Below are positions 3,321 to 47,082 of a stretch of DNA of 47,082 bases, piece after piece; the stretch's first letter is position 1; each line of letters begins with the position of its first letter. The notes under the pieces were generated by a model. It had not been told where the DNA came from and did not search any database. It saw only the letters and a list, made by a program, of their open reading frames with translations. Origin of the DNA: Escherichia phage vB_EcoS_WF5505; the sequence record NC_073060.1, one strand, 5' to 3'. The translations under genes were made by a program, and so were the position numbers.

Positions 3321-3488
3321 ATGTTAAAAAGTATTCTTGATCATAACGCGGACGCGCTTGCCGCACTGGCTAAAACGGAAGACCCAGGCGCGCGCGCCAT
3401 TATCGCGGACACTATCAGTCATGCTGGCGTCTTTGACGCTAAGTTGCCGAGTCCGCCACCGCCGGAAGAACCAGGCCCAACGGTGTGA
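3321..3488 (+). CDS. Small hypothetical protein (55 aa, Pro-rich C-terminus)
   Basis: ATG with GAGGAAA RBS, in frame with track ORF 3084-3488; position after endolysin. Confidence 0.45.
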   Translation: MLKSILDHNADALAALAKTEDPGARAIIADTISHAGVFDAKLPSPPPPEEPGPTV

Positions 3489-3495
3489 AATCACA

Positions 3496-3519
3496 AGCCC
3501 GGCTAATGTCGGGCTTTTT
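3496..3519 (+). terminator. Rho-independent terminator
   Basis: AGCCCG-loop-CGGGCT hairpin followed by TTTT. Confidence 0.6.
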
Positions 3520-3523
3520 ATTG

Positions 3524-3563
3524 CTTGACTTGCAACCAACATAGAGGCCATACTGCAACCAAT
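3524..3563 (+). promoter_or_regulatory. Promoter-like region with two TGCAACCAA(T/C) motif copies
   Basis: TTGACT then TGCAACCAAC (3531-3540) and TGCAACCAAT (3554-3563) upstream of small ORFs. Confidence 0.4.
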
Positions 3564-3585
3564 CAACGAGAAGGAGTAATACACT

Positions 3586-3672
3586 ATGACACGCAATGAT
3601 ATTTATGTACTGGCAATCTGGTCCGCAGCGGCCTTTATCGGAATGGTAATTTGTGAGGTGATGTATGGCTGA
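3586..3672 (+). CDS. Possible 28-aa hydrophobic peptide
   Basis: ATG after AAGGAG RBS; MTRNDIYVLAIWSAAAFIGMVICEVMYG; below track length cut-off. Confidence 0.3.
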   Translation: MTRNDIYVLAIWSAAAFIGMVICEVMYG

Positions 3673-3838
3673 GTTAATCCGCCTGATGGCGCGGGATGAA
3701 CACGTGAAAGTAACATTCTATGAAGGCGGCAAGTGCTGCCGAGTGGAGTGCTGCGACCGTGGCGTTAAAATGCAATTCGAAGGATACACGGACACTATTG
3801 TTGATATTCTTCGAGACCTGGGGACGATCCGCGGCTGA
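3665..3838 (+). CDS. Small Cys-rich hypothetical protein (57 aa)
   Basis: ATG overlaps upstream stop; contains CC...ECC cysteine pairs; not in track. Confidence 0.35.
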   Translation: MAELIRLMARDEHVKVTFYEGGKCCRVECCDRGVKMQFEGYTDTIVDILRDLGTIRG

Positions 3839-22514: not shown

Positions 22515-23122
22515 CCACATTTAAATTGTACGGCGTCTTAGGACGTCGTTTTGGTAAAGTGCATAAGCTGGACTGTTTCACACCTGGCGAGGGTATCACC
22601 GGCCTATGCGTGAAGTTACCAGGCTTACAGGACTTTCTAATGTCGGCCCACCTGAACAGCATGATGTTCAAGGTGCGCAAGGGCAAGCACACAATGACCA
22701 GCTACGACGAGTTGGGCGAGTTCCACGGCGACCGCGTAGTTACCATCGCGCCAGTCATGACTGGTGCTAAAAGCGGACTTGGACAATTGCTGGCGGGCGT
22801 AGCTATCGTGGTGGCGTCGTTCTATACCGGTGGGCTTGCCGCTGCCGCTTTCGGTGCTTCCGCTGCTACCGCTGCCGCTATTGGAACGGCGACGTTTTCG
22901 TTCGGTATGTCGCTTGCGCTGGGCGGCGCTATGCAATTGCTGTCACCGCAGCCGAAAGGATTGCAGACACGGCAGGACGTGGATAACAAGGCGTCGTATG
23001 CGTTTGGCGGGCCTGTAAACACGACCGCGCAAGGTACGGCACTTGGTGTATTATGGGGCGAGCGTGAGATCGGCGGCGCTATTATTTCAGCCGGAATTGT
23101 AACCGAGGATTTGAACGAATGA
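22505..23122 (+). CDS. Tail assembly protein I-like
   Basis: 205 aa with Gly/Ala-rich hydrophobic C-terminal half; immediately upstream of and coupled to J-like gene. Confidence 0.65.
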   Translation: MAMTTFKLYGVLGRRFGKVHKLDCFTPGEGITGLCVKLPGLQDFLMSAHLNSMMFKVRKGKHTMTSYDELGEFHGDRVVTIAPVMTGAKSGLGQLLAGVAIVVASFYTGGLAAAAFGASAATAAAIGTATFSFGMSLALGGAMQLLSPQPKGLQTRQDVDNKASYAFGGPVNTTAQGTALGVLWGEREIGGAIISAGIVTEDLNE

Positions 23123-26100
23123 CGATTGTATACGACGTCACGGGTCATAAAGGCGGCGGTGGCAAACAGCACACCCCACAGGAGACGCCTGATAGCCTGC
23201 ATTCGCTGGCTAAAATCCGCATCTTGCTCGCACTGGGCGAGGGCGAATTTGAAGGCATTCCCGACCCTAACGAATTACGGCAGCGTGTATACCTGGACGG
23301 CACACCGATCCAGAACGCCGACCTGTCGGATAACTTCCCCGGCGCGCGTGTGGAGTTCCGCCCCGGCACGCAGCACCAGGATGTGATTCACGGTTTTTCA
23401 GCGGTGGAAAGCGAGCAAACAGTAGGCGTAAAACTGGAGAACGGCGCGCCGTGGGTGCGCCAGATTTCGGACACCAGTTTGGACGCCGTGCGCATTCGAA
23501 TCGGTATTCCGGCCCTGTACACCAACGAAGATAATGGCGACCTGGTGGGCGGGCGCATCGACTATAAAATCGTTGTGTATACCGACAATGCTGATCCGCG
23601 GGAGTTTACATTCGCTGCCGTTGGTAAAACAATGTCGCTGTATGAGCGCGATCACCGAATCGAATTACCGCCGAACGTTAACACCGGCTGGCGCGTGGAG
23701 GTGCACCGCACAACGGCAGACTCCACATCGGCAAAAGCGGTCAACGATATTCAGGTACAATCCATTACTGAGATTATCGACGCCCGCCTGCGATACCCGC
23801 TAACCGCGCTGTTGTTCGTGGAGTTCGATGCTAAGGCGTTCCAGAACATCCCGCGTGTGTCCATCAAGTGCAAAGGCCGCAAAGTGCTGGTGCCGAACAA
23901 CTACGACCCGATTAATCATACCTATTCTGGTGACTGGGACGGCACATTTAAACGCGCCTGGACGGATAACCCTGCGTGGCACTGGTACGATATTTGTATT
24001 ACTGAGCGCTTCGGCCTCGGTCGTCGTGTCAAGCCACAAATGCTAAACCGTTACGCACTCTACCAGATTTCGCAGCGCTGCGATCAGATGGTCAGTGACG
24101 GCAACGGCGGTCAGGAAATCCGATTTAAGAATGATATGTACATTCAGTCGCAGACCGACGCCTGGACCGTGCTGAAGGATTTAGCGGCTATCTTTGCGGG
24201 CATGACCTGGTGGGGCAACCAGATGTTGAATATCGTCAGTGACCAGCCTGTCGCAGCGGTATCGCATACTATCACCAACGCCTCGGTCATTGATGGTCGA
24301 TTCGACTACGCATCGGGAAGCCAGAAAACTCGGTATTCCACGTTCTCGGTAGCCTACGGCAACCCGAAGAACCACTATGATGACGCCATCGCAACGGGTC
24401 AACGTGTCGAACTGGTGCGCCGCCATAAGATTAACCGCCTTGATATCACGGCGATCGGCTGTACGCGAGAATCTGAAGCGCAACGCCGCGGGCACTGGGC
24501 GCTAATCTCCAACCAGCTTGACCAGCAAGTCAGCTTTAAGGTTGGCATGGAGGGGTTATTCTTTATTCCGGGGAGCGTAGTCGCGATCGCAGATACTAAC
24601 ATTTCTGGCGGCTTCGAGACACGCGGCGGACGCCTGTTGTCAGATCCAGGCACGCGCACCGTGCTGAACACGGACAGCGAAATCACGTTCCGCCCTGGTG
24701 ATAAATTCCTGGTGCGCACCGATAGCGGTAATGTGGAGACTCGCGAGATTGCCAGCGTCAACGGCAACCAGGTCACGCTAAAAACCGCACTGGACTCCGA
24801 CCCGATTCCCGATCAGCCGTTTTGCGTTGATGGCGATGATATCCAGTTGCAGAAGTTCCGCATCACAGACCTGGAATATGACGACGCTACCAGCACTTTT
24901 TCGGTGCGCGGGATTGAGTACAACGATAGCAAATATGATGCCGTTGATAATGGCGCGCGTCTTGATCCGGGTATCTTCACGCAAGTGCCGGACGGAGTAA
25001 TGAAGGGGCCAGAATCCGTTACCATCACCCCGTCGCAGATTTCATCGCAAGGCCAGCTAATCACCAACGTGGACATTGTATTCCCGCCGGTGAAGGATGC
25101 CGTTGTGTACGAAATACAGTGGCGACGTACCAGCTTGCAGAATCTGGAAGTACAGTGGGGCAACGACTGGGTGAACATCCCCCGCACGGCATCGAACGGC
25201 GCGCACATCCCGAACGTGTTTTCTGGTAACTACCAGGCACGCGTCCGCGCTATCGGTATGGGCGAGATTTCATCCCCGTGGGTGTCATCCGAAATCACGC
25301 CGGTCGAGGGCCGTCTTGGCGGGCTAAACGCGCCAATCATTACCAACGCGATTTCGGGCCTTCATCAAATTTTGTGGAAGTGGAATCACAACAACGCCGC
25401 GACGGATATTTCGTATACCGAGCTTGAAGTGCGCAAGCTGGGTGAGACTGAATGGAAATTCTTGACCAACGTCCCATATCCGGGGTCGGACTATGCGCAA
25501 ACGTCGCTGGAATTCGGGATCTACCAGCAGTTGCGCGCACGCGTAGCGGATAAAATCGGCAACCTGTCGGACTGGTCAGACCCGTTTGACGGTCAGGTGA
25601 GTGACAAAGTTGACGAGTACATGCAGGGGCTTGATGACGAGTTCTTGACTTCCGAGGACGGTAAACACTTCCAGGAAGCAATCGACACCATTCCACAAGG
25701 CATTTACGAGGCCATGCTCACCGACGCGCAGCAGTTGTTTAACGCCCGCTCCGAGTATCAAGGGATTTATGCGGAAATCAAGGTGGCGTACAACGTTGCG
25801 GTGGACGCAAACGAGGCCGTAGCGCAACTGGAAACGCTGATCGGCACGCGCCTTGACGATGCGGAAGCGTCAATCCACACGTTGCAGACTGCGCAAAGCA
25901 CGCACGAACAAGCGTTCGCCCAGTATCAACAAACTGTTGCCGCTAAGTTCGGGGAACAGGAAGCTGCCATCCAGCAGGTACAAACGGCAACGGCAGACGT
26001 AGCGGGCGCGCTGGCTGAGTATAAGACCCAGGTAGCGGCACAGTTCGGTCAGCAGTCCGCAGCGATCGAGCAGAAGATGACGTCTTCGTTTAACCATGCT

Positions 26101-26565
26101 GGCGGTAGCGCCACCTACAGCCTTAAAGCTGGCGTGACGTATAACGGGACTTACTATGATGCCGGTATGCAGCTTTCCGTTGTGGCGGAAGGTGGCGCGG
26201 TTAAATCTCGCATCGCGTTCAAGGCGGACCAGTTCTACATCATGCACCCGTCGAATGGGTCGCTTTCGTCCGCGTTTATCGTCGACGGCGGTCAGGTGTA
26301 CATTGACACGGCGCGCATCAAGAATGCGTCCATCAACTTCGCACAGATCACGGACACGCTGCAATCCAATAACTGGAATCCGGGTAACAGCGGCTGGCGA
26401 ATCGCGAAGGATGGCGGGGCGGAGTTCAACAACGTAACGGTACGCGGCAACTTGTTCGCGACTACGGGTAATTTCGGATTCTCCGGCGGGTCCGTTACGA
26501 TCGACGCAACGGGCGTCAACGTGCCATTACCTGGAGGGGGAAGGGTTAAAGTCGGGACGTGGTAA
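23119..26565 (+). CDS. Central tail fibre / host specificity protein J-like
   Basis: 1148 aa; N-terminus KQHTPQETPDSLHSLAKIRILLALGEGEFEG and YSGDWDGTFKRAW resemble lambda gpJ (recalled). Confidence 0.9.
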   Translation: MTIVYDVTGHKGGGGKQHTPQETPDSLHSLAKIRILLALGEGEFEGIPDPNELRQRVYLDGTPIQNADLSDNFPGARVEFRPGTQHQDVIHGFSAVESEQTVGVKLENGAPWVRQISDTSLDAVRIRIGIPALYTNEDNGDLVGGRIDYKIVVYTDNADPREFTFAAVGKTMSLYERDHRIELPPNVNTGWRVEVHRTTADSTSAKAVNDIQVQSITEIIDARLRYPLTALLFVEFDAKAFQNIPRVSIKCKGRKVLVPNNYDPINHTYSGDWDGTFKRAWTDNPAWHWYDICITERFGLGRRVKPQMLNRYALYQISQRCDQMVSDGNGGQEIRFKNDMYIQSQTDAWTVLKDLAAIFAGMTWWGNQMLNIVSDQPVAAVSHTITNASVIDGRFDYASGSQKTRYSTFSVAYGNPKNHYDDAIATGQRVELVRRHKINRLDITAIGCTRESEAQRRGHWALISNQLDQQVSFKVGMEGLFFIPGSVVAIADTNISGGFETRGGRLLSDPGTRTVLNTDSEITFRPGDKFLVRTDSGNVETREIASVNGNQVTLKTALDSDPIPDQPFCVDGDDIQLQKFRITDLEYDDATSTFSVRGIEYNDSKYDAVDNGARLDPGIFTQVPDGVMKGPESVTITPSQISSQGQLITNVDIVFPPVKDAVVYEIQWRRTSLQNLEVQWGNDWVNIPRTASNGAHIPNVFSGNYQARVRAIGMGEISSPWVSSEITPVEGRLGGLNAPIITNAISGLHQILWKWNHNNAATDISYTELEVRKLGETEWKFLTNVPYPGSDYAQTSLEFGIYQQLRARVADKIGNLSDWSDPFDGQVSDKVDEYMQGLDDEFLTSEDGKHFQEAIDTIPQGIYEAMLTDAQQLFNARSEYQGIYAEIKVAYNVAVDANEAVAQLETLIGTRLDDAEASIHTLQTAQSTHEQAFAQYQQTVAAKFGEQEAAIQQVQTATADVAGALAEYKTQVAAQFGQQSAAIEQKMTSSFNHAGGSATYSLKAGVTYNGTYYDAGMQLSVVAEGGAVKSRIAFKADQFYIMHPSNGSLSSAFIVDGGQVYIDTARIKNASINFAQITDTLQSNNWNPGNSGWRIAKDGGAEFNNVTVRGNLFATTGNFGFSGGSVTIDATGVNVPLPGGGRVKVGTW

Positions 26566-26570
26566 ATGAG

Positions 26571-26595
26571 AAGGGGCCATCCGGCCCCTTTTTTA
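26571..26595. terminator. Bidirectional rho-independent terminator (GGGGCC-N-GGCCCC family)
   Basis: AGGGGCCATCCGGCCCCT flanked by A-run and T-run; between J (+) and minus-strand gene. Confidence 0.7.
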
Positions 26596-27558
26596 ATACA
26601 TGTTAGGTATGACGAGTAACGGGGTTGGGACGGCTATGTTGCGGTTAGGCATCTGGAATTGCTGCCGTGAGTAGTTACCGATTACGCGATTACGCGCCGC
26701 ACTAACCACGTTGCCCGCCATGCGTATCCCGTTCATTCGAACGTGGTTGTAGCCGCTGTTGTTCTCAATGAGCGCGCCGGTATATGAAAGCTGTACGAGG
26801 CTATTACCGATATTCTGACCGCCGGTGCCGATATTAATTACCGAATTGAGCACAAACGGCTTGTTAACGGTCGAGAACGTGACCTGCCCCTGGTTGTTCG
26901 TCATGGTGATACCAGTCCCCGGTGATGGAGGCGTATTGTTGAAGATAACCAGATCCAAGTCCACTTCGGCCCCGACGTCATCAATCCCGCCATAAGACGA
27001 ATTGCGGACGATGATACTACTACCATCGAAGCCTACCGATACGTTGCCATTATCCCAGCGCGCGAACGGGATACCGCCCACAGGCAAAGGCATACTACCG
27101 TTCACGTGCACGCGCTGCGCGTAGCGGCAGGTCATTAACCGGGACACGTTGGAAATCGCGGTGAAGTCTGTCGAGTTCGCCACCAGTAAGCCCGCATTGC
27201 GTGACCCCACCGGCAGCACTTCCATAATTATACCAGCCCATTGCGGGAGGCCGCTGTATGCGTTATGCGCGTCCGCGCCTCGAAGGATAATTCCACTATC
27301 CCCGTTGCGCTGTACCGACGTCACGTAGAACGGGTCGGGGAGAACCAGCGTCTGGTCGAACACCTCAAGCACTTCTACCGGGCGCGTGAGTGCAACGACA
27401 AGGTCCGACCCTGGTGTTAGCGGGGTATTAATGGTCAGCGTCTTGTCGGACTGGCAGCGCTGATCAAACGTAGTGCAGTATGACGGAGCGCGCAAACCGG
27501 CAGTTATCTCCATAATCGGTCGTCCGTCGTTGTAGTCGATGAGTATTCCAGCGCCCAT
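26593..27558 (-). CDS. Putative receptor-binding protein (about 321 aa, Gly/Asn/Ser/Val-rich)
   Basis: Minus-strand gene between J and tail fibre, coupled to an upstream lipoprotein gene; ATG with GGGAG RBS. Confidence 0.45.
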   Translation of the reverse strand: MGAGILIDYNDGRPIMEITAGLRAPSYCTTFDQRCQSDKTLTINTPLTPGSDLVVALTRPVEVLEVFDQTLVLPDPFYVTSVQRNGDSGIILRGADAHNAYSGLPQWAGIIMEVLPVGSRNAGLLVANSTDFTAISNVSRLMTCRYAQRVHVNGSMPLPVGGIPFARWDNGNVSVGFDGSSIIVRNSSYGGIDDVGAEVDLDLVIFNNTPPSPGTGITMTNNQGQVTFSTVNKPFVLNSVINIGTGGQNIGNSLVQLSYTGALIENNSGYNHVRMNGIRMAGNVVSAARNRVIGNYSRQQFQMPNRNIAVPTPLLVIPNMY

Positions 27559-27560
27559 TA

Positions 27561-27782
27561 TTACCACTCCCGTGATTTAACAGATACAGTGCCTGAGAAA
27601 TTGCCGTCGCTATCGGCAGATAGGCCCGTGAAGCGCATGTCCACGTCCCCGGCAGGGACTTTTTGCCCGTCAACGTAGCGTAACATGCAGCTACCGTAAG
27701 CAACCGTAATGCAATCGCCGTTGTTGCGTTCTACAGCACAACCGGACAAAAGGACCGCACAAATCATAATTAAAGTTTTCAT
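27561..27782 (-). CDS. Small lipoprotein (73 aa), candidate superinfection-exclusion protein
   Basis: Signal peptide MKTLIMICAVLLSGC with lipobox, strong AGGAGA RBS; adjacent to putative RBP gene. Confidence 0.6.
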   Translation of the reverse strand: MKTLIMICAVLLSGCAVERNNGDCITVAYGSCMLRYVDGQKVPAGDVDMRFTGLSADSDGNFSGTVSVKSREW

Positions 27783-27863
27783 GTTATCATCTCCTATATT
27801 TGGTTGAGTTTTAGTATTGCACCGCTCAATCAAGAATGCAACCAATTTTAAGAGGATTCAGCT
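27783..27863. promoter_or_regulatory. Divergent promoter region between lipoprotein and tail-fibre genes
   Basis: Contains TGCAACCAAT (27837-27846) and inverted partial copy TTGGTTGAG (27799-27807). Confidence 0.4.
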
Positions 27864-29390
27864 ATGGCAGCGGGTACTATCTTATTAACCAATAACAGCC
27901 GGTCGGTAACGGGGACCGGTACGACGTTTTCGGCGTTCAAAGCCGGTGATTTCCTTTCTGTCGTAGTGGGGCAAGTCCCCTACACTATCGCGATTGAATC
28001 TATCGAAAGCAACACCGGGCTTACTTTGGTGCTGCCGTTTGACGGCCCAACGGCATCCGGCCTCGCATGGGATGGCGTTGCGCGCGATACCATGTCGCTG
28101 GCAACGATGGGCGTAACAGTCCAGGCACAGAAAGCACTGCGTATGCTTATTGCGGACGAGAACAACTGGCGTGCAATCTTCGGCGACGCTGAAGAAATCA
28201 CAGTTACGTTACCGAACGGCACAGTGATGCAGGGTATGTCGTGGGGCTACCTGTCGCAGCTAATGAAGCAGATCGACCCGGTGGAAATGCTCAACCTGCA
28301 ACAACAAGCCGCCGCATCTGAGGTCGCAGCGAAAGGATACCGCGACGAGGCCGAAGGCTTCAAGAACGATACTAATACCATCAAGACGCAAACCAACCAG
28401 ATTAAGACTGATACGCAGGCGATCCACGACGCCACCAATACGATCAAGACGCAAACCGACCAGATTAAGACCGATACGCAGGCCATCAAGGACCAGACCA
28501 ACCAGATTAAGACTGACACTGGCGTTATTCGAGATCAGGCCAACACGGCGAAGACTGACGCACAAGCGGCCCGAGATGCAGCGCAGGGATACCGCGACGA
28601 AGCCGAAGGCTTCAAAAACTCAATCGACCCCACTAAGTTCATGCAGAAGTCGCAGAACCTGGCGGACGTTGCCGACAAGTACACCGCGCGCAACATTCTG
28701 GGGGTGGGCGATGACAGTAACGTTAAACACGCAACATTACGCCTGAACGGTGGCGAATCATTAACATTCAATGAAGTGGAGGCTAACGGCTTAATTCTAT
28801 CAAACGCCTCGATGGGAATCGACAATTGGGTAGGCTTCACCATGCATGAATGGTACGCCGACTGGACACGCGCAGGAATTGTGCGTGCGGGTGACACCCA
28901 CGTGTCAGACTACCGCATCCACGTGTGGAAGAATGGGGCTACTGAGGCGCTATTCCGCTTCCTGCCGGACGGGCGTCTGATTCAGGGTAACAGCGGCAAC
29001 CCATCGTCGGCGGAGTTTCAGAAAGCACCGCTATCAGACCGGGACGTGAAGAAAGAAATCCAATACACGGACGGCGCGGAAAGTTACAACCGAGTACGGC
29101 AATGGCTACCAGCAATGTTTAAGTATAAGGAGTCGGACGTACAGCGTTACGGCCTTATCGCGCAGGACCTGGCCATGATTGACCCGGAATATGTGCACTT
29201 GCTGCCAGGACACGGAATCTACGAGGACGTTGTTGTTGGCGTGGACGAGGAAGGGAACGAGATTATCGAGCAAAAGGAGATCGGATACACCGACGATGTG
29301 CTGTCGCTTGACAGTAACGTGCTGTTGATGGATCTATGCGCCGCCTTCGTTCACCTGTTGCAGAAAGTAGAAAAGCTGGAAGGTAAGTAA
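27864..29390 (+). CDS. Tail fibre protein with C-terminal intramolecular chaperone domain
   Basis: N-terminal MAAGTILLTNNSRSVTG; 21-aa tandem repeats; C-terminal LSDRDVKK and GLIAQDL resemble S74 autoproteolytic chaperone domains. Confidence 0.75.
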   Translation: MAAGTILLTNNSRSVTGTGTTFSAFKAGDFLSVVVGQVPYTIAIESIESNTGLTLVLPFDGPTASGLAWDGVARDTMSLATMGVTVQAQKALRMLIADENNWRAIFGDAEEITVTLPNGTVMQGMSWGYLSQLMKQIDPVEMLNLQQQAAASEVAAKGYRDEAEGFKNDTNTIKTQTNQIKTDTQAIHDATNTIKTQTDQIKTDTQAIKDQTNQIKTDTGVIRDQANTAKTDAQAARDAAQGYRDEAEGFKNSIDPTKFMQKSQNLADVADKYTARNILGVGDDSNVKHATLRLNGGESLTFNEVEANGLILSNASMGIDNWVGFTMHEWYADWTRAGIVRAGDTHVSDYRIHVWKNGATEALFRFLPDGRLIQGNSGNPSSAEFQKAPLSDRDVKKEIQYTDGAESYNRVRQWLPAMFKYKESDVQRYGLIAQDLAMIDPEYVHLLPGHGIYEDVVVGVDEEGNEIIEQKEIGYTDDVLSLDSNVLLMDLCAAFVHLLQKVEKLEGK

Positions 29391-29393
29391 TGA

Positions 29394-29418
29394 GAAGGGG
29401 CCATACGGCCCCTTTTTT
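29394..29418. terminator. Bidirectional rho-independent terminator (GGGGCC-N-GGCCCC family)
   Basis: AAGGGGCCATACGGCCCCTT followed by TTTTTT; between tail fibre (+) and minus-strand module. Confidence 0.7.
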
Positions 29419-29992
29419 AGTTTGAGTTTTCCCAGTCCATTTTGCGCCGTACTAACGGGCTTTCGTAATATTCCTTGCCCTCCACTTCCACCAGAGGCCA
29501 GTCGTTGACAATCACGTATGGTTCCGCAATATCCTCAATCACGCCGTGTGCGCTATGTTGCCCGAACGATACGCCCACCAGGATAACACCGGCAACCCGA
29601 CGGGTGAGATACTCGCGAGCGCAACGCGCCTCTACCAGTCCGCGACGGATGCCGCTGGTGGCTTTGACCTCGTAGGTCCAGACGGCATCAATCATGTGCT
29701 CACGGAAGTCGGGGCCGGACTTAACCTTGCGTTTACCGACCATGATAATATCGCCGCGGTCGATAGTATTGGCGCTAAACAGGCCGGTACGCATAAGCAA
29801 GCCTTGCGGGATACAACTACGCCCGCCTGCCTGCCCTTCAAGGTACATGCCAGCAAACATCTCGCCCAGCACACCGACAAGTCGGCTTTGCTTGCACGCG
29901 TCAGACTTTAATCGCCACTGGTCAAACTCGACGCTCGCCAACATTGCCGCTATGTGGAATTGTTTACCGGTTATTTCGTATTCGCCGTACAT
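29417..29992 (-). CDS. Hypothetical protein (191 aa), possible PD-(D/E)XK-like nuclease
   Basis: Track ORF; candidate motif GDIIMV...(about 28 aa)...YEVK; assignment weak. Confidence 0.4.
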   Translation of the reverse strand: MYGEYEITGKQFHIAAMLASVEFDQWRLKSDACKQSRLVGVLGEMFAGMYLEGQAGGRSCIPQGLLMRTGLFSANTIDRGDIIMVGKRKVKSGPDFREHMIDAVWTYEVKATSGIRRGLVEARCAREYLTRRVAGVILVGVSFGQHSAHGVIEDIAEPYVIVNDWPLVEVEGKEYYESPLVRRKMDWENSN

Positions 29993-44945: not shown

Positions 44946-45159
44946 AAATCCTGGATTGCATAATGCACGGCAGCATGATGAGAATTGCGGTCGTTGATGA
45001 ACTAGGCAACCAATGCGAGTTGGATAATGGAGAGTGAAAAATGCAGTTTGCAGTTACAGCAGATAGCGATCAACTTTTTCATACGCATGATTAATATTGG
45101 TTGCATTCAGCCTGGCACCCTGCTAGATTGGTTGCACACCAACGAGAGGACCAAACAAA

Positions 45160-45330
45160 ATGAAATTTCCAGTAACCATCAAAGACGGTAAATCAACTAT
45201 CACCTTCACCAGCAACGACCAGGGCACCTATGAAAGCGGGGCGACTTGCATGTCTACCCTGGACGATGTGATGATTCGTGTTAATTCCGGTAAAGCCTCG
45301 ATTGTTGACGACAACACTAAGAAGGACTGA
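45160..45330 (+). CDS. Duplicate of 104-274 (small early protein)
   Basis: Inside right repeat, identical sequence. Confidence 0.5.
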   Translation: MKFPVTIKDGKSTITFTSNDQGTYESGATCMSTLDDVMIRVNSGKASIVDDNTKKD

Positions 45331-45333
45331 ACA

Positions 45334-45639
45334 ATGAGAGCATTAATCTGGAAATACTCACGGGCCATAGCGAAGCTGGACGAAGCGAAAAACACAAACG
45401 GCAACGTAGACTATGCGCGCCAGTTTGCGGCACGGGCACACCAACACATCATGAGTGCGCTCGACGATATGGACGCCAGCATGGATGACCTGGGTCCGCT
45501 GCGTAAGGCTATCCATGAATACGCGCTGGCATTCTCCCGTGAGCGCCTGGCCTATCGCTTCGGTATTGGCGATAAGGCAGTGACAAACGTTGCCCGGATT
45601 AAAGCCCAGCGTGAGCTATTCGCCCAGCTTGCGAAATAA
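45334..45639 (+). CDS. Duplicate of 278-583
   Basis: Identical translation in ORF track. Confidence 0.6.
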   Translation: MRALIWKYSRAIAKLDEAKNTNGNVDYARQFAARAHQHIMSALDDMDASMDDLGPLRKAIHEYALAFSRERLAYRFGIGDKAVTNVARIKAQRELFAQLAK

Positions 45640-45648
45640 GAGGCCAAA

Positions 45649-45918
45649 ATGACCCGTAGACGCGCAAAACAGCTTTCGTGGCATATCCCCCTGCATTGCA
45701 TACGAATATGGGCTAAGAATGCGAATGAGGGCGATTCAGTGTTCTGGTGCTATCGCGACGACGTTAAGCCGTTGACGCAGACTCGCTACTTGCACCAGTT
45801 CGCAGCACAACACGATTTCAGGGTGCGGACTTCCTTGCAACCAATGGGGATCCGTATTACATTACGCCGGAAGCCCGCCGTTGAGCGGGTAGGCAAACAC
45901 TGGAGACTGAGCAAATGA
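45649..45918 (+). CDS. Duplicate of 593-862
   Basis: Identical translation in ORF track. Confidence 0.55.
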   Translation: MTRRRAKQLSWHIPLHCIRIWAKNANEGDSVFWCYRDDVKPLTQTRYLHQFAAQHDFRVRTSLQPMGIRITLRRKPAVERVGKHWRLSK

Positions 45919-46259
45919 TTCGAGTAACCGCACGCCACGAACAATCGGGGGCCACTTACGATGTAATCGACGTTCGCGGCGCGTTCGTCATCTTCGGACG
46001 GGGTGACGACCGGCTGGCGCTGCCGATCGGTATGCTGAGCACATACGACTATTTCAAGCATAACGTCCGGTGTGGCGATGTGCTGCGCGATAAGCGCACC
46101 GGTGAGCTATGGACGGTGGCGAGTATTTGGGTGAAAGATAAACGGCAGCACACGTTATTGCTCGCCCGCCCGGATTGCAAACAGCAAACTATTAACACTA
46201 TTGGCCTGGTGGACTACACCCGCGTAGGCCGTAACGCTACCTGGAGACTGAGAAAATGA
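45915..46259 (+). CDS. Duplicate of 859-1203 (paralogue A)
   Basis: Identical translation in ORF track. Confidence 0.6.
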   Translation: MIRVTARHEQSGATYDVIDVRGAFVIFGRGDDRLALPIGMLSTYDYFKHNVRCGDVLRDKRTGELWTVASIWVKDKRQHTLLLARPDCKQQTINTIGLVDYTRVGRNATWRLRK

Positions 46260-46888
46260 AATTACTATTCCGCCGTAACTCAGATGGCTATATCCTGAAG
46301 CCGATCCAGACCCTATCGAACTGGGTACGCCTCCACCACGTTGCGAGTGATAAAGTCTGGTGGGCGACTAAGGCAAAGCTGCCGGAGTACTACGAAATCC
46401 TCACACACGATATCGAGCGCGGCGATGTGCTGCGGGATATTCGCGACGGGCAATTGTGGGTCGTGGAATACGTGGGTCGGCACGGCCTGCGTATGACGTC
46501 CCGCAAGGATGGCGTAGCGGGCAACATGGTCAAGGGCATGACTTACTTCGGGCTACTCCACTACGAACGAGTGGGCCGCAAGTACAGCCTGCGTGCGCGC
46601 CAGCCTCATGAGCGAGCGAACGCCATAGCGGACGTCGTTAACCGCGTAGCGCGGGAGGTGGAGCAGAAGACACGCGTTGAGTTCTGCAAGTCCCAGCCAG
46701 CCTATGCAACCTACGACGCGAGCAAAGCGCAGGAATTGATCCGCAGTGCCACGCATGAAATCATCAATCACGTTGATGCCATGACGAACGCCAAGCGCCA
46801 GGCCAGCGAATACGGCGTAGGATTCATCCGTGTCGAACAAGACGGCAACATGACCGCCATCGACCCGCGCACGGTAATACTGAAATGA
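46256..46888 (+). CDS. Duplicate of 1200-1832 (paralogue B)
   Basis: Identical translation in ORF track. Confidence 0.6.
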   Translation: MKLLFRRNSDGYILKPIQTLSNWVRLHHVASDKVWWATKAKLPEYYEILTHDIERGDVLRDIRDGQLWVVEYVGRHGLRMTSRKDGVAGNMVKGMTYFGLLHYERVGRKYSLRARQPHERANAIADVVNRVAREVEQKTRVEFCKSQPAYATYDASKAQELIRSATHEIINHVDAMTNAKRQASEYGVGFIRVEQDGNMTAIDPRTVILK

Positions 46889-47009
46889 GCGCAACTATCC
46901 GTGATATGCTTATGCATAACCGCTTTGAGATAGGCGGGAGAGTGTTCTGCAATTACTTCGTGGCGCGTGCTTGGGCGCGCCATATCGGAAAACCAGTAGG
47001 GGCAATACG

Positions 47010-47082
47010 ATGCTACACGATTTGATATTTTGGTTTGGTTTGGGGTGTGCGTCACTCTTTGCTATAGTGCTGGCGCTGTTGA
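47010..47082 (+). CDS. 5' fragment of duplicate of 1954-2241, truncated by window end
   Basis: Same sequence as 1954-2026; the window (and the repeat) ends inside the gene. Confidence 0.4.
   Translation, partial: MLHDLIFWFGLGCASLFAIVLALL

Follow-up and report, generated by a model that had tools for sequence, protein, structure and literature searches.

The window analysed here is the whole 47,082-nt sequence of Escherichia phage vB_EcoS_WF5505 (NC_073060.1), and all positions refer to it. Two co-directional minus-strand ORFs lie exactly at 26593-27782, flanked by the J-like gene (23119-26565, plus strand, 1148 aa) on one side and the lateral tail-fibre gene (27864-29390, plus strand, 508 aa) on the other, as the original prediction of a two-gene minus-strand operon had it. 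The upstream ORF of this cassette (27561-27782) encodes the 73-aa precursor of a predicted superinfection-exclusion (SE) lipoprotein, whose orthologue is SEOeko (bas18_0026) and which is homologous to Rtp45. The downstream ORF (26593-27558) encodes a 321-aa DUF6453 protein, a predicted receptor-binding protein (RBP) of the LptD-specific type and the orthologue of RBPOeko (bas18_0025) and Rtp44. The stops of the J-like gene (26565) and the RBP gene (26593) are convergent, as they also are in Oekolampad, TheodorHerzl, and Rtp. Situated directly after the gpJ homologue, the RBP gene occupies the position that marks LptD-type RBPs.

The ATG of the RBP gene (27558) is only 2 nt past the TAA of the lipoprotein gene (TGG TAA TA ATG), so that the pair probably forms one operon with translational coupling. 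The lipoprotein gene is preceded by the strong RBS that had been claimed for it (AGGAG, 8 nt before the ATG), and the RBP gene by GGGAG, 8 nt upstream of its ATG and within the 3' end of the lipoprotein gene. The longest-ORF call for the 321-aa protein begins at GTG 27567; because the homologues and the solved protein (PDB chain) begin with MGAGIL, the true start is ATG 27558. Codon comparisons with Oekolampad revealed 110 synonymous and 47 non-synonymous differences in the RBP gene and 16 synonymous and one non-synonymous in the lipoprotein gene, and both genes are under purifying selection relative to that phage. Together with the Pfam matches (E 2.7e-118 and 3.6e-21) and hundreds of phage homologues, these codon differences establish both ORFs as real genes.

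An intrinsic terminator hairpin (26568-26592, both strands) with the sequence GAGAAGGGGCC-ATCC-GGCCCCTTCTC, followed by T6, fills the 27 nt that separate the two convergent stops of J and RBP. This hairpin was missed by a simple scan and was revealed by folding and a pattern search. The folding energy on the plus strand is -20.8 kcal/mol (z -4.2), against -16.3 kcal/mol (z -2.5) on the minus strand; either strand can use the hairpin, the U-tract being weaker in the minus direction. A second copy, which differs in one loop base, was located by folding and pattern match at 29392-29416 (both strands; -18.7 kcal/mol, z -4.6 on plus; -15.7 kcal/mol, z -4.2 on minus), where it separates the lateral tail-fibre gene from the convergent gene at 29417-29992. 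The pattern search gave only these two copies of the motif in the window, with none expected. The divergent intergenic region at 27783-27863, with the starts of the cassette and of the lateral tail-fibre gene on its two sides, showed no significant hairpin and no terminator when folded on both strands (z -1.4 and -1.0). The proposal that bidirectional terminators bracket the cassette thus stands on the J side, where the hairpin is strong, but not at 27783-27863; with the second copy at 29392-29416, the terminators bracket the cassette plus the lateral tail fibre instead of the cassette alone.

Within the same divergent region, a putative minus-strand sigma-70 promoter of the cassette was recognised by eye and was not reported by a consensus promoter scan; it consists of a -35 hexamer TTGCAT (27841-27836), a 17-nt spacer, and TGc-AATACT (27818-27813). 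The promoter-like hexamers are kept in Oekolampad and in TheodorHerzl, despite the cassette genes of TheodorHerzl being only 33-45% identical. The hairpin pair is likewise present in Oekolampad, and one copy is found in TheodorHerzl. Beyond these phages, the hairpin motif adjoins tail-fibre genes of many Klebsiella Weberviruses and of JLBYU37, a Dhillonvirus of the FhuA type.

The 321-aa protein scores 395 bits for the Pfam family DUF6453 (PF20051), whose gathering cut-off is 25 (E 2.7e-118), its residues 4-297 aligning with positions 1-290 of the 291 in the profile, and a profile search also returned it as a full-length member of phrog_1265. Its description as Gly/Asn/Ser-rich holds for Gly (10.3%) and Asn (9.3%), which are moderately enriched, but not for Ser (7.5%), which is unremarkable; Val accounts for 10.0%. 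A comparison with all PDB chains gave one match, RBPOeko (9rpt_C/9rpw/9rqi; E 3.2e-183), aligned 1-321 on 1-321 with 85.4% identity, and the full-length identity with Rtp44 is 32%. An LptD-type RBP shares more than 30% identity, at about full coverage, with a validated LptD-binding RBP (bioRxiv 10.64898/2026.04.02.716166), and the protein exceeds this threshold with both RBPOeko (321 of 321 aa covered) and Rtp44. The predicted fold is that of the solved RBPOeko, all-beta with two sandwich domains. Gln299, which contacts LptD Ser350 in RBPOeko and is the sole contact residue named in the main text of that study, is conserved. The most conserved stretch of the DUF6453 family is the N-terminal ~25 residues, which fits the published proposal that the N-terminus docks on the tail. 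Neither the PDB chain comparison nor the fold comparison gave any similarity to T5 pb5. Judged by its sequence relationships, the 321-aa DUF6453 protein is predicted to be the terminal RBP. Its receptor would be LptD, an essential protein that exports LPS at the outer membrane, or the LPS translocon LptDE, in place of a TonB-dependent transporter of the FhuA kind.

The 47 amino-acid differences between this RBP and RBPOeko are scattered, and the recognised LptD loops or alleles may have shifted with them. At the DNA level, the RBP gene is 72-83% identical to that of Oekolampad, compared with ~90% for the J and lipoprotein genes. DUF6453 homologues with 45-55% identity are present on megabase-size contigs of Citrobacter, Salmonella, and E. 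coli, presumably in prophages, and another occurs in the temperate Yersinia phage PY54. The records named 'Campylobacter phage A131/A118' carry RBP and lipoprotein genes that are ~60% identical, and their host label looks questionable.

The 73-aa lipoprotein starts with MKTLIMICAVLLSGC... / MKTLIMICAVLLSGCAV... and contains the predicted lipobox, L-S-G-C. The lipobox can be read directly from the sequence as MKTLIMICAVLLSG followed by C15-A16, which places the lipid on Cys15 and Ala at the +2 position; Rtp45-type lipoproteins are characterised by a lipobox-bearing signal peptide and, as the mark of outer-membrane sorting, a residue other than Asp at +2. The protein matches PF24052 (Phage_lipoprotein) over residues 3-73 with 75.4 bits against a cut-off of 27 (E 3.6e-21) and phrog_4281 with E 3.7e-33. 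It is identical to SEOeko (bas18_0026) at 72 of 73 positions (99%), the sole difference being A62S. Compared with Rtp45 (PDB 9rps_D), it has 36% identity (E 5e-13), and the PDB chain search gives 9rps_D with E 2.1e-8. Cys24 and Cys32 align with the Cys30-Cys38 disulfide of Rtp45 and are predicted to form a disulfide, and the hairpin segment VPAGDVDMR aligns with VPAGEVDVR of Rtp45 (VPAG[DE]VD.R); both the cysteine pair and the hairpin motif, which are hallmarks of the Rtp45 type, are invariant in the three-sequence alignment. A phmmer search of PDB chains at E<=10 gave Rtp45 and chance matches but not Llp, and the Pfam search gave PF24052 only. The Cor profile (phrog_1119) had no match over the mature lipoprotein; its match (E 6.4e-4, 21 bits) is limited to the signal peptide with the lipobox, residues 1-30.

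PF24052 homologues (32-40% identity, E 1e-7 to 1e-4) were also observed in Gordonclarkvirinae podophages, in Kuravirus records of ~76-78 kb that include phiEco32 (EU330206), EK010, and vB_EcoP-101114UKE3. The phiEco32 homologue is gp106 (3468-3749), located among small genes beside tRNA-Arg, and the annotation of the surrounding ~7 kb shows no DUF6453 gene. These homologues might reflect the use of LptD by the podophages themselves or the exclusion of LptD-targeting competitors.

The two genes that flank the cassette encode tail proteins. The J-like protein belongs to phrog_31, 'central tail fiber J' (E reported as 0), contains the Pfam domains FNIII-A_GpJ, Phage-tail_3, and Phage_Tail_Tip, and is annotated as 'host specificity protein J' in MZ234016; it is presumed to be the docking platform for the separately encoded RBP. 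The lateral tail fibre matches phrog_1980 (E 1.2e-118), carries a Peptidase_S74 domain (C-terminal intramolecular chaperone domain) at aa 391-444, and has homologues annotated as 'lateral tail fiber protein' in Oekolampad and TheodorHerzl. It is a second, glycan-directed host-range determinant beside the cassette. Its N-terminal part is ~80-85% identical to that of Oekolampad, and from ~28600 onwards the identity falls to 50-60% with many gaps, which is the noise level. With the C-terminal half unrelated, a surface-glycan specificity different from that of Oekolampad is implied despite the shared LptD module.

Previous work on close homologues indicates how such a cassette operates. In Drexlerviridae, Dhillonvirus, Nonagvirus, and Seuratvirus, Maffei et al. 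(2021) related the alleles of the 'RBP loci' that follow gpJ to receptors, and resistant lptD mutants led them to LptD as the receptor used by Oekolampad, TheodorHerzl, and others (PMC8594841). Dunbar et al. (2025) showed that RBPOeko inserts into the open state of LptDE through an interface of ~1,700 Å2 involving EL3-5 and EL11, and that the LptD substitutions D352Y and Y671N abolish both Oekolampad infection and RBPOeko binding (PMC12685063). For an RBP of this type, LptDE binding, presence in the virion, and dependence of infection on lptD were demonstrated in Oekolampad only (PMC12685063, PMC8594841). In the same study, Rtp45 was located on the periplasmic side of LptD between LptE and LptM, with its hairpin rising through the LptD lumen and pushing EL4 aside by up to 20 Å, a state of LptD that does not permit RBP binding (PMC12685063). 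Expression of SEOeko failed in the hands of these authors, and the SE structure exists for Rtp45 only; we found no in-vivo exclusion assay in that paper (PMC12685063). A 2026 preprint reports a specific association of the DUF6453-type family, delimited at >30% identity, with LptD (bioRxiv 10.64898/2026.04.02.716166). The RBP of phage BF9, which is 97.5% identical to that of the present phage, was previously modelled as a predicted LptD binder, and Bas83-85 were previously predicted to target LptD.

Oekolampad (Bas18; PDB 9RPT, 9RPW, 9RQI) belongs to the same genus and carries its cassette at the same position and in the same orientation between J and the lateral tail fibre; it shares the RBP over its full length, nearly all of the lipoprotein, the terminator pair, and the promoter-like hexamers, and differs in the 47 scattered RBP substitutions and the unrelated C-terminal half of the lateral tail fibre. 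Rtp44 and Rtp45 of phage Rtp (Drexlerviridae, Braunvirinae; PDB 9RPS, LptDEM-Rtp45) fall into the same DUF6453 and PF24052 families and have the same antisense two-gene layout after the J homologue, with the disulfide cysteines and the hairpin motif of the lipoprotein conserved. However, Rtp is a member of another phage family, the identities are only 32% (RBP) and 36% (lipoprotein), and its upstream intergenic region is longer and unrelated. In TheodorHerzl, the order J(+)/RBP(-)/lipoprotein(-) is retained, but the RBP and the lipoprotein are 33% and 45% identical, respectively. In the Klebsiella Webervirus RCIP0007 (OR532801), by contrast, the DUF6453 gene directly follows J in the same direction and the lipoprotein homologue is ~10 kb away; hence, the antisense two-gene cassette is not universal for the RBP/SE pair.

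The likeness to T5 pb5/Llp and to Cor-type proteins that had been suggested for this locus holds for the functional logic but not for ancestry, there being no pb5 sequence or fold relationship, no Llp match, and a Cor match confined to the signal peptide. As in T5, a dedicated RBP at the central fibre tip would be paired with a small lipoprotein of the outer membrane, which attaches to the same receptor from the periplasm and keeps the RBP from binding; however, the T5 receptor is the TonB-dependent FhuA, whereas LptDE is predicted here. The modes of exclusion differ as well, since Llp acts on FhuA by long-range allostery and the Rtp45 type by steric displacement of EL4 through the LptD lumen (PMC12685063). 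Cor (T1/phi80/N15) is similarly a small lipoprotein beside the host-recognition genes of small siphoviruses and is proposed to inactivate the phage's own receptor, but it acts on FhuA and its mature part is unrelated. By these comparisons, the RBP and the lipoprotein are analogues of T5 pb5/Llp and Cor and not their homologues.

Taken together, we are highly confident that in this cassette a Dhillonvirus carries its host-recognition module of the LptD type, comprising an RBP and an LptD-blocking SE lipoprotein. The expectation of an RBP with a cognate SE lipoprotein beside J agrees with the experiments on the close homologues Oekolampad and Rtp45. The cassette would be transcribed antisense to the tail operon from its own conserved sigma-70-like promoter, and the transcript would end at the hairpin shared with J. 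The N-terminal ~25 residues of the RBP probably attach it to the J-like central fibre tip, and its distal loops would enter the extracellular mouth of LptDE and touch EL3-5 and EL11, as demonstrated for the 85%-identical RBPOeko. This engagement of LptDE would commit the virion to irreversible adsorption and DNA ejection. The 73-aa precursor likely undergoes export and lipidation at Cys15 and then ends up in the inner leaflet of the outer membrane, since Ala occupies the +2 position and established lipoprotein rules then apply. By analogy with the Rtp45 structure, the lipoprotein would bind periplasmic LptD between LptE and LptM with its beta-hairpin extending up the barrel lumen; if EL4 is displaced by up to ~20 Å in this clade as it is by the 36%-identical Rtp45, LptD could no longer accept the RBP, and superinfecting LptD phages would be excluded. 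Such exclusion would shield the infected cell against superinfection, and progeny would not be lost on debris. Two observations count against this picture: an exclusion factor, expected to be early, would be co-transcribed with a virion protein, expected to be late, and a Klebsiella Webervirus carries the RBP and lipoprotein genes 10 kb apart.

A module of the same RBP and SE architecture might have drifted to FhuA, BtuB, YncD, or a distinct LptD variant or conformation. RBP loci at the J-adjacent position are known to be swapped among receptors (PMC8594841), and the 47 differences from RBPOeko, along with an RBP gene that is more divergent in DNA (72-83%) than its flanks (~90%), would accommodate such a drift; however, the RBPs for FhuA, BtuB, and YncD that occupy this locus come from other, unrelated families, LptD is the receptor associated with DUF6453-type proteins throughout, down to ~30% identity (bioRxiv 10.64898/2026.04.02.716166), the lipoprotein is almost the same as in Oekolampad, an LptD phage, and neither pb5 nor Cor homology exists, which makes such a drift very improbable. 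Even less credible is a reading in which J alone sets the receptor and the 321-aa product counts as a moron or 'membrane protein' without a structural role. This reading derives from the phrog_1265 label ('membrane protein; moron, auxiliary metabolic gene and host takeover'), from the term 'membrane protein' in several GenBank records, and from the antisense position of the gene relative to the tail operon, but the label is inherited without experimental basis, the structure model is an all-beta soluble fold, and the 85%-identical protein forms a specific ~1,700 Å2 complex with LptDE whose formation is abolished by infection-blocking LptD point mutations.

Regarding the lipoprotein, it would be surprising if it bound LptD with a main role other than exclusion, such as the modulation of LPS export or outer-membrane integrity in the course of infection, or only the prevention of new RBP or virions from adhering to debris. 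The Rtp45-bound conformation of LptD is sterically incompatible with RBP binding (PMC12685063), the lipoprotein gene is tightly linked to the RBP gene in Dhillonvirus and Rtp, and the Llp/Cor precedent favours exclusion; these points outweigh the missing in-vivo exclusion in PMC12685063, where SEOeko was not expressible, and the homologues in Kuravirus podophages without a DUF6453 gene at that locus. The preferred reading, an LptD-specific RBP with an LptD-blocking lipoprotein, leads us to infer that this phage uses LptD, which is assigned as its predicted terminal receptor. Resistance mutations are predicted to be changes in EL4, EL5, and EL11 of LptD, such as D352Y, Y671N, and an EL11 deletion. 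Cross-exclusion with other LptD-targeting phages is likewise predicted, which would be useful for the design of phage cocktails. The RBP/SE cassette is an already known and structurally characterised system in a known genus, and nothing in it is biologically new beyond Maffei et al. (2021) and Dunbar et al. (2025).

The block flanked by the two hairpins comprises the RBP, the SE lipoprotein, and the lateral tail fibre, that is, a host-range block. A speculative and rather doubtful joint proposal is that the hairpins serve as recombination anchors that move this block between genera, with the RBP diversifying against LptD loop variants and the SE site remaining fixed; the sequences behind the diversification part are the 47 RBP substitutions (relative to RBPOeko) beside a near-invariant SE lipoprotein.

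The region 26400-27900 is 100% identical to that of Escherichia phage vB_EcoS-101114BS4 (Dhillonvirus), whose record labels the two cassette genes only as 'hypothetical protein' and 'lipoprotein', and is 85-92% identical to many other Dhillonviruses. The genome as a whole is a mosaic relative of vB_EcoS-101114BS4, with 97.7% identity over 3841-41292, near identity at ~16.5-30.5 kb, and much greater divergence at 13-16.5, 30.5-33, and 39.5-40 kb. Positions 1-2026 of the window are repeated exactly at 45057-47082, leaving a unique unit of 45,056 bp; this 2,026-base end repeat has the appearance of wrap-around, either in a genome that is circularly permuted or terminally redundant or in a circular assembly.
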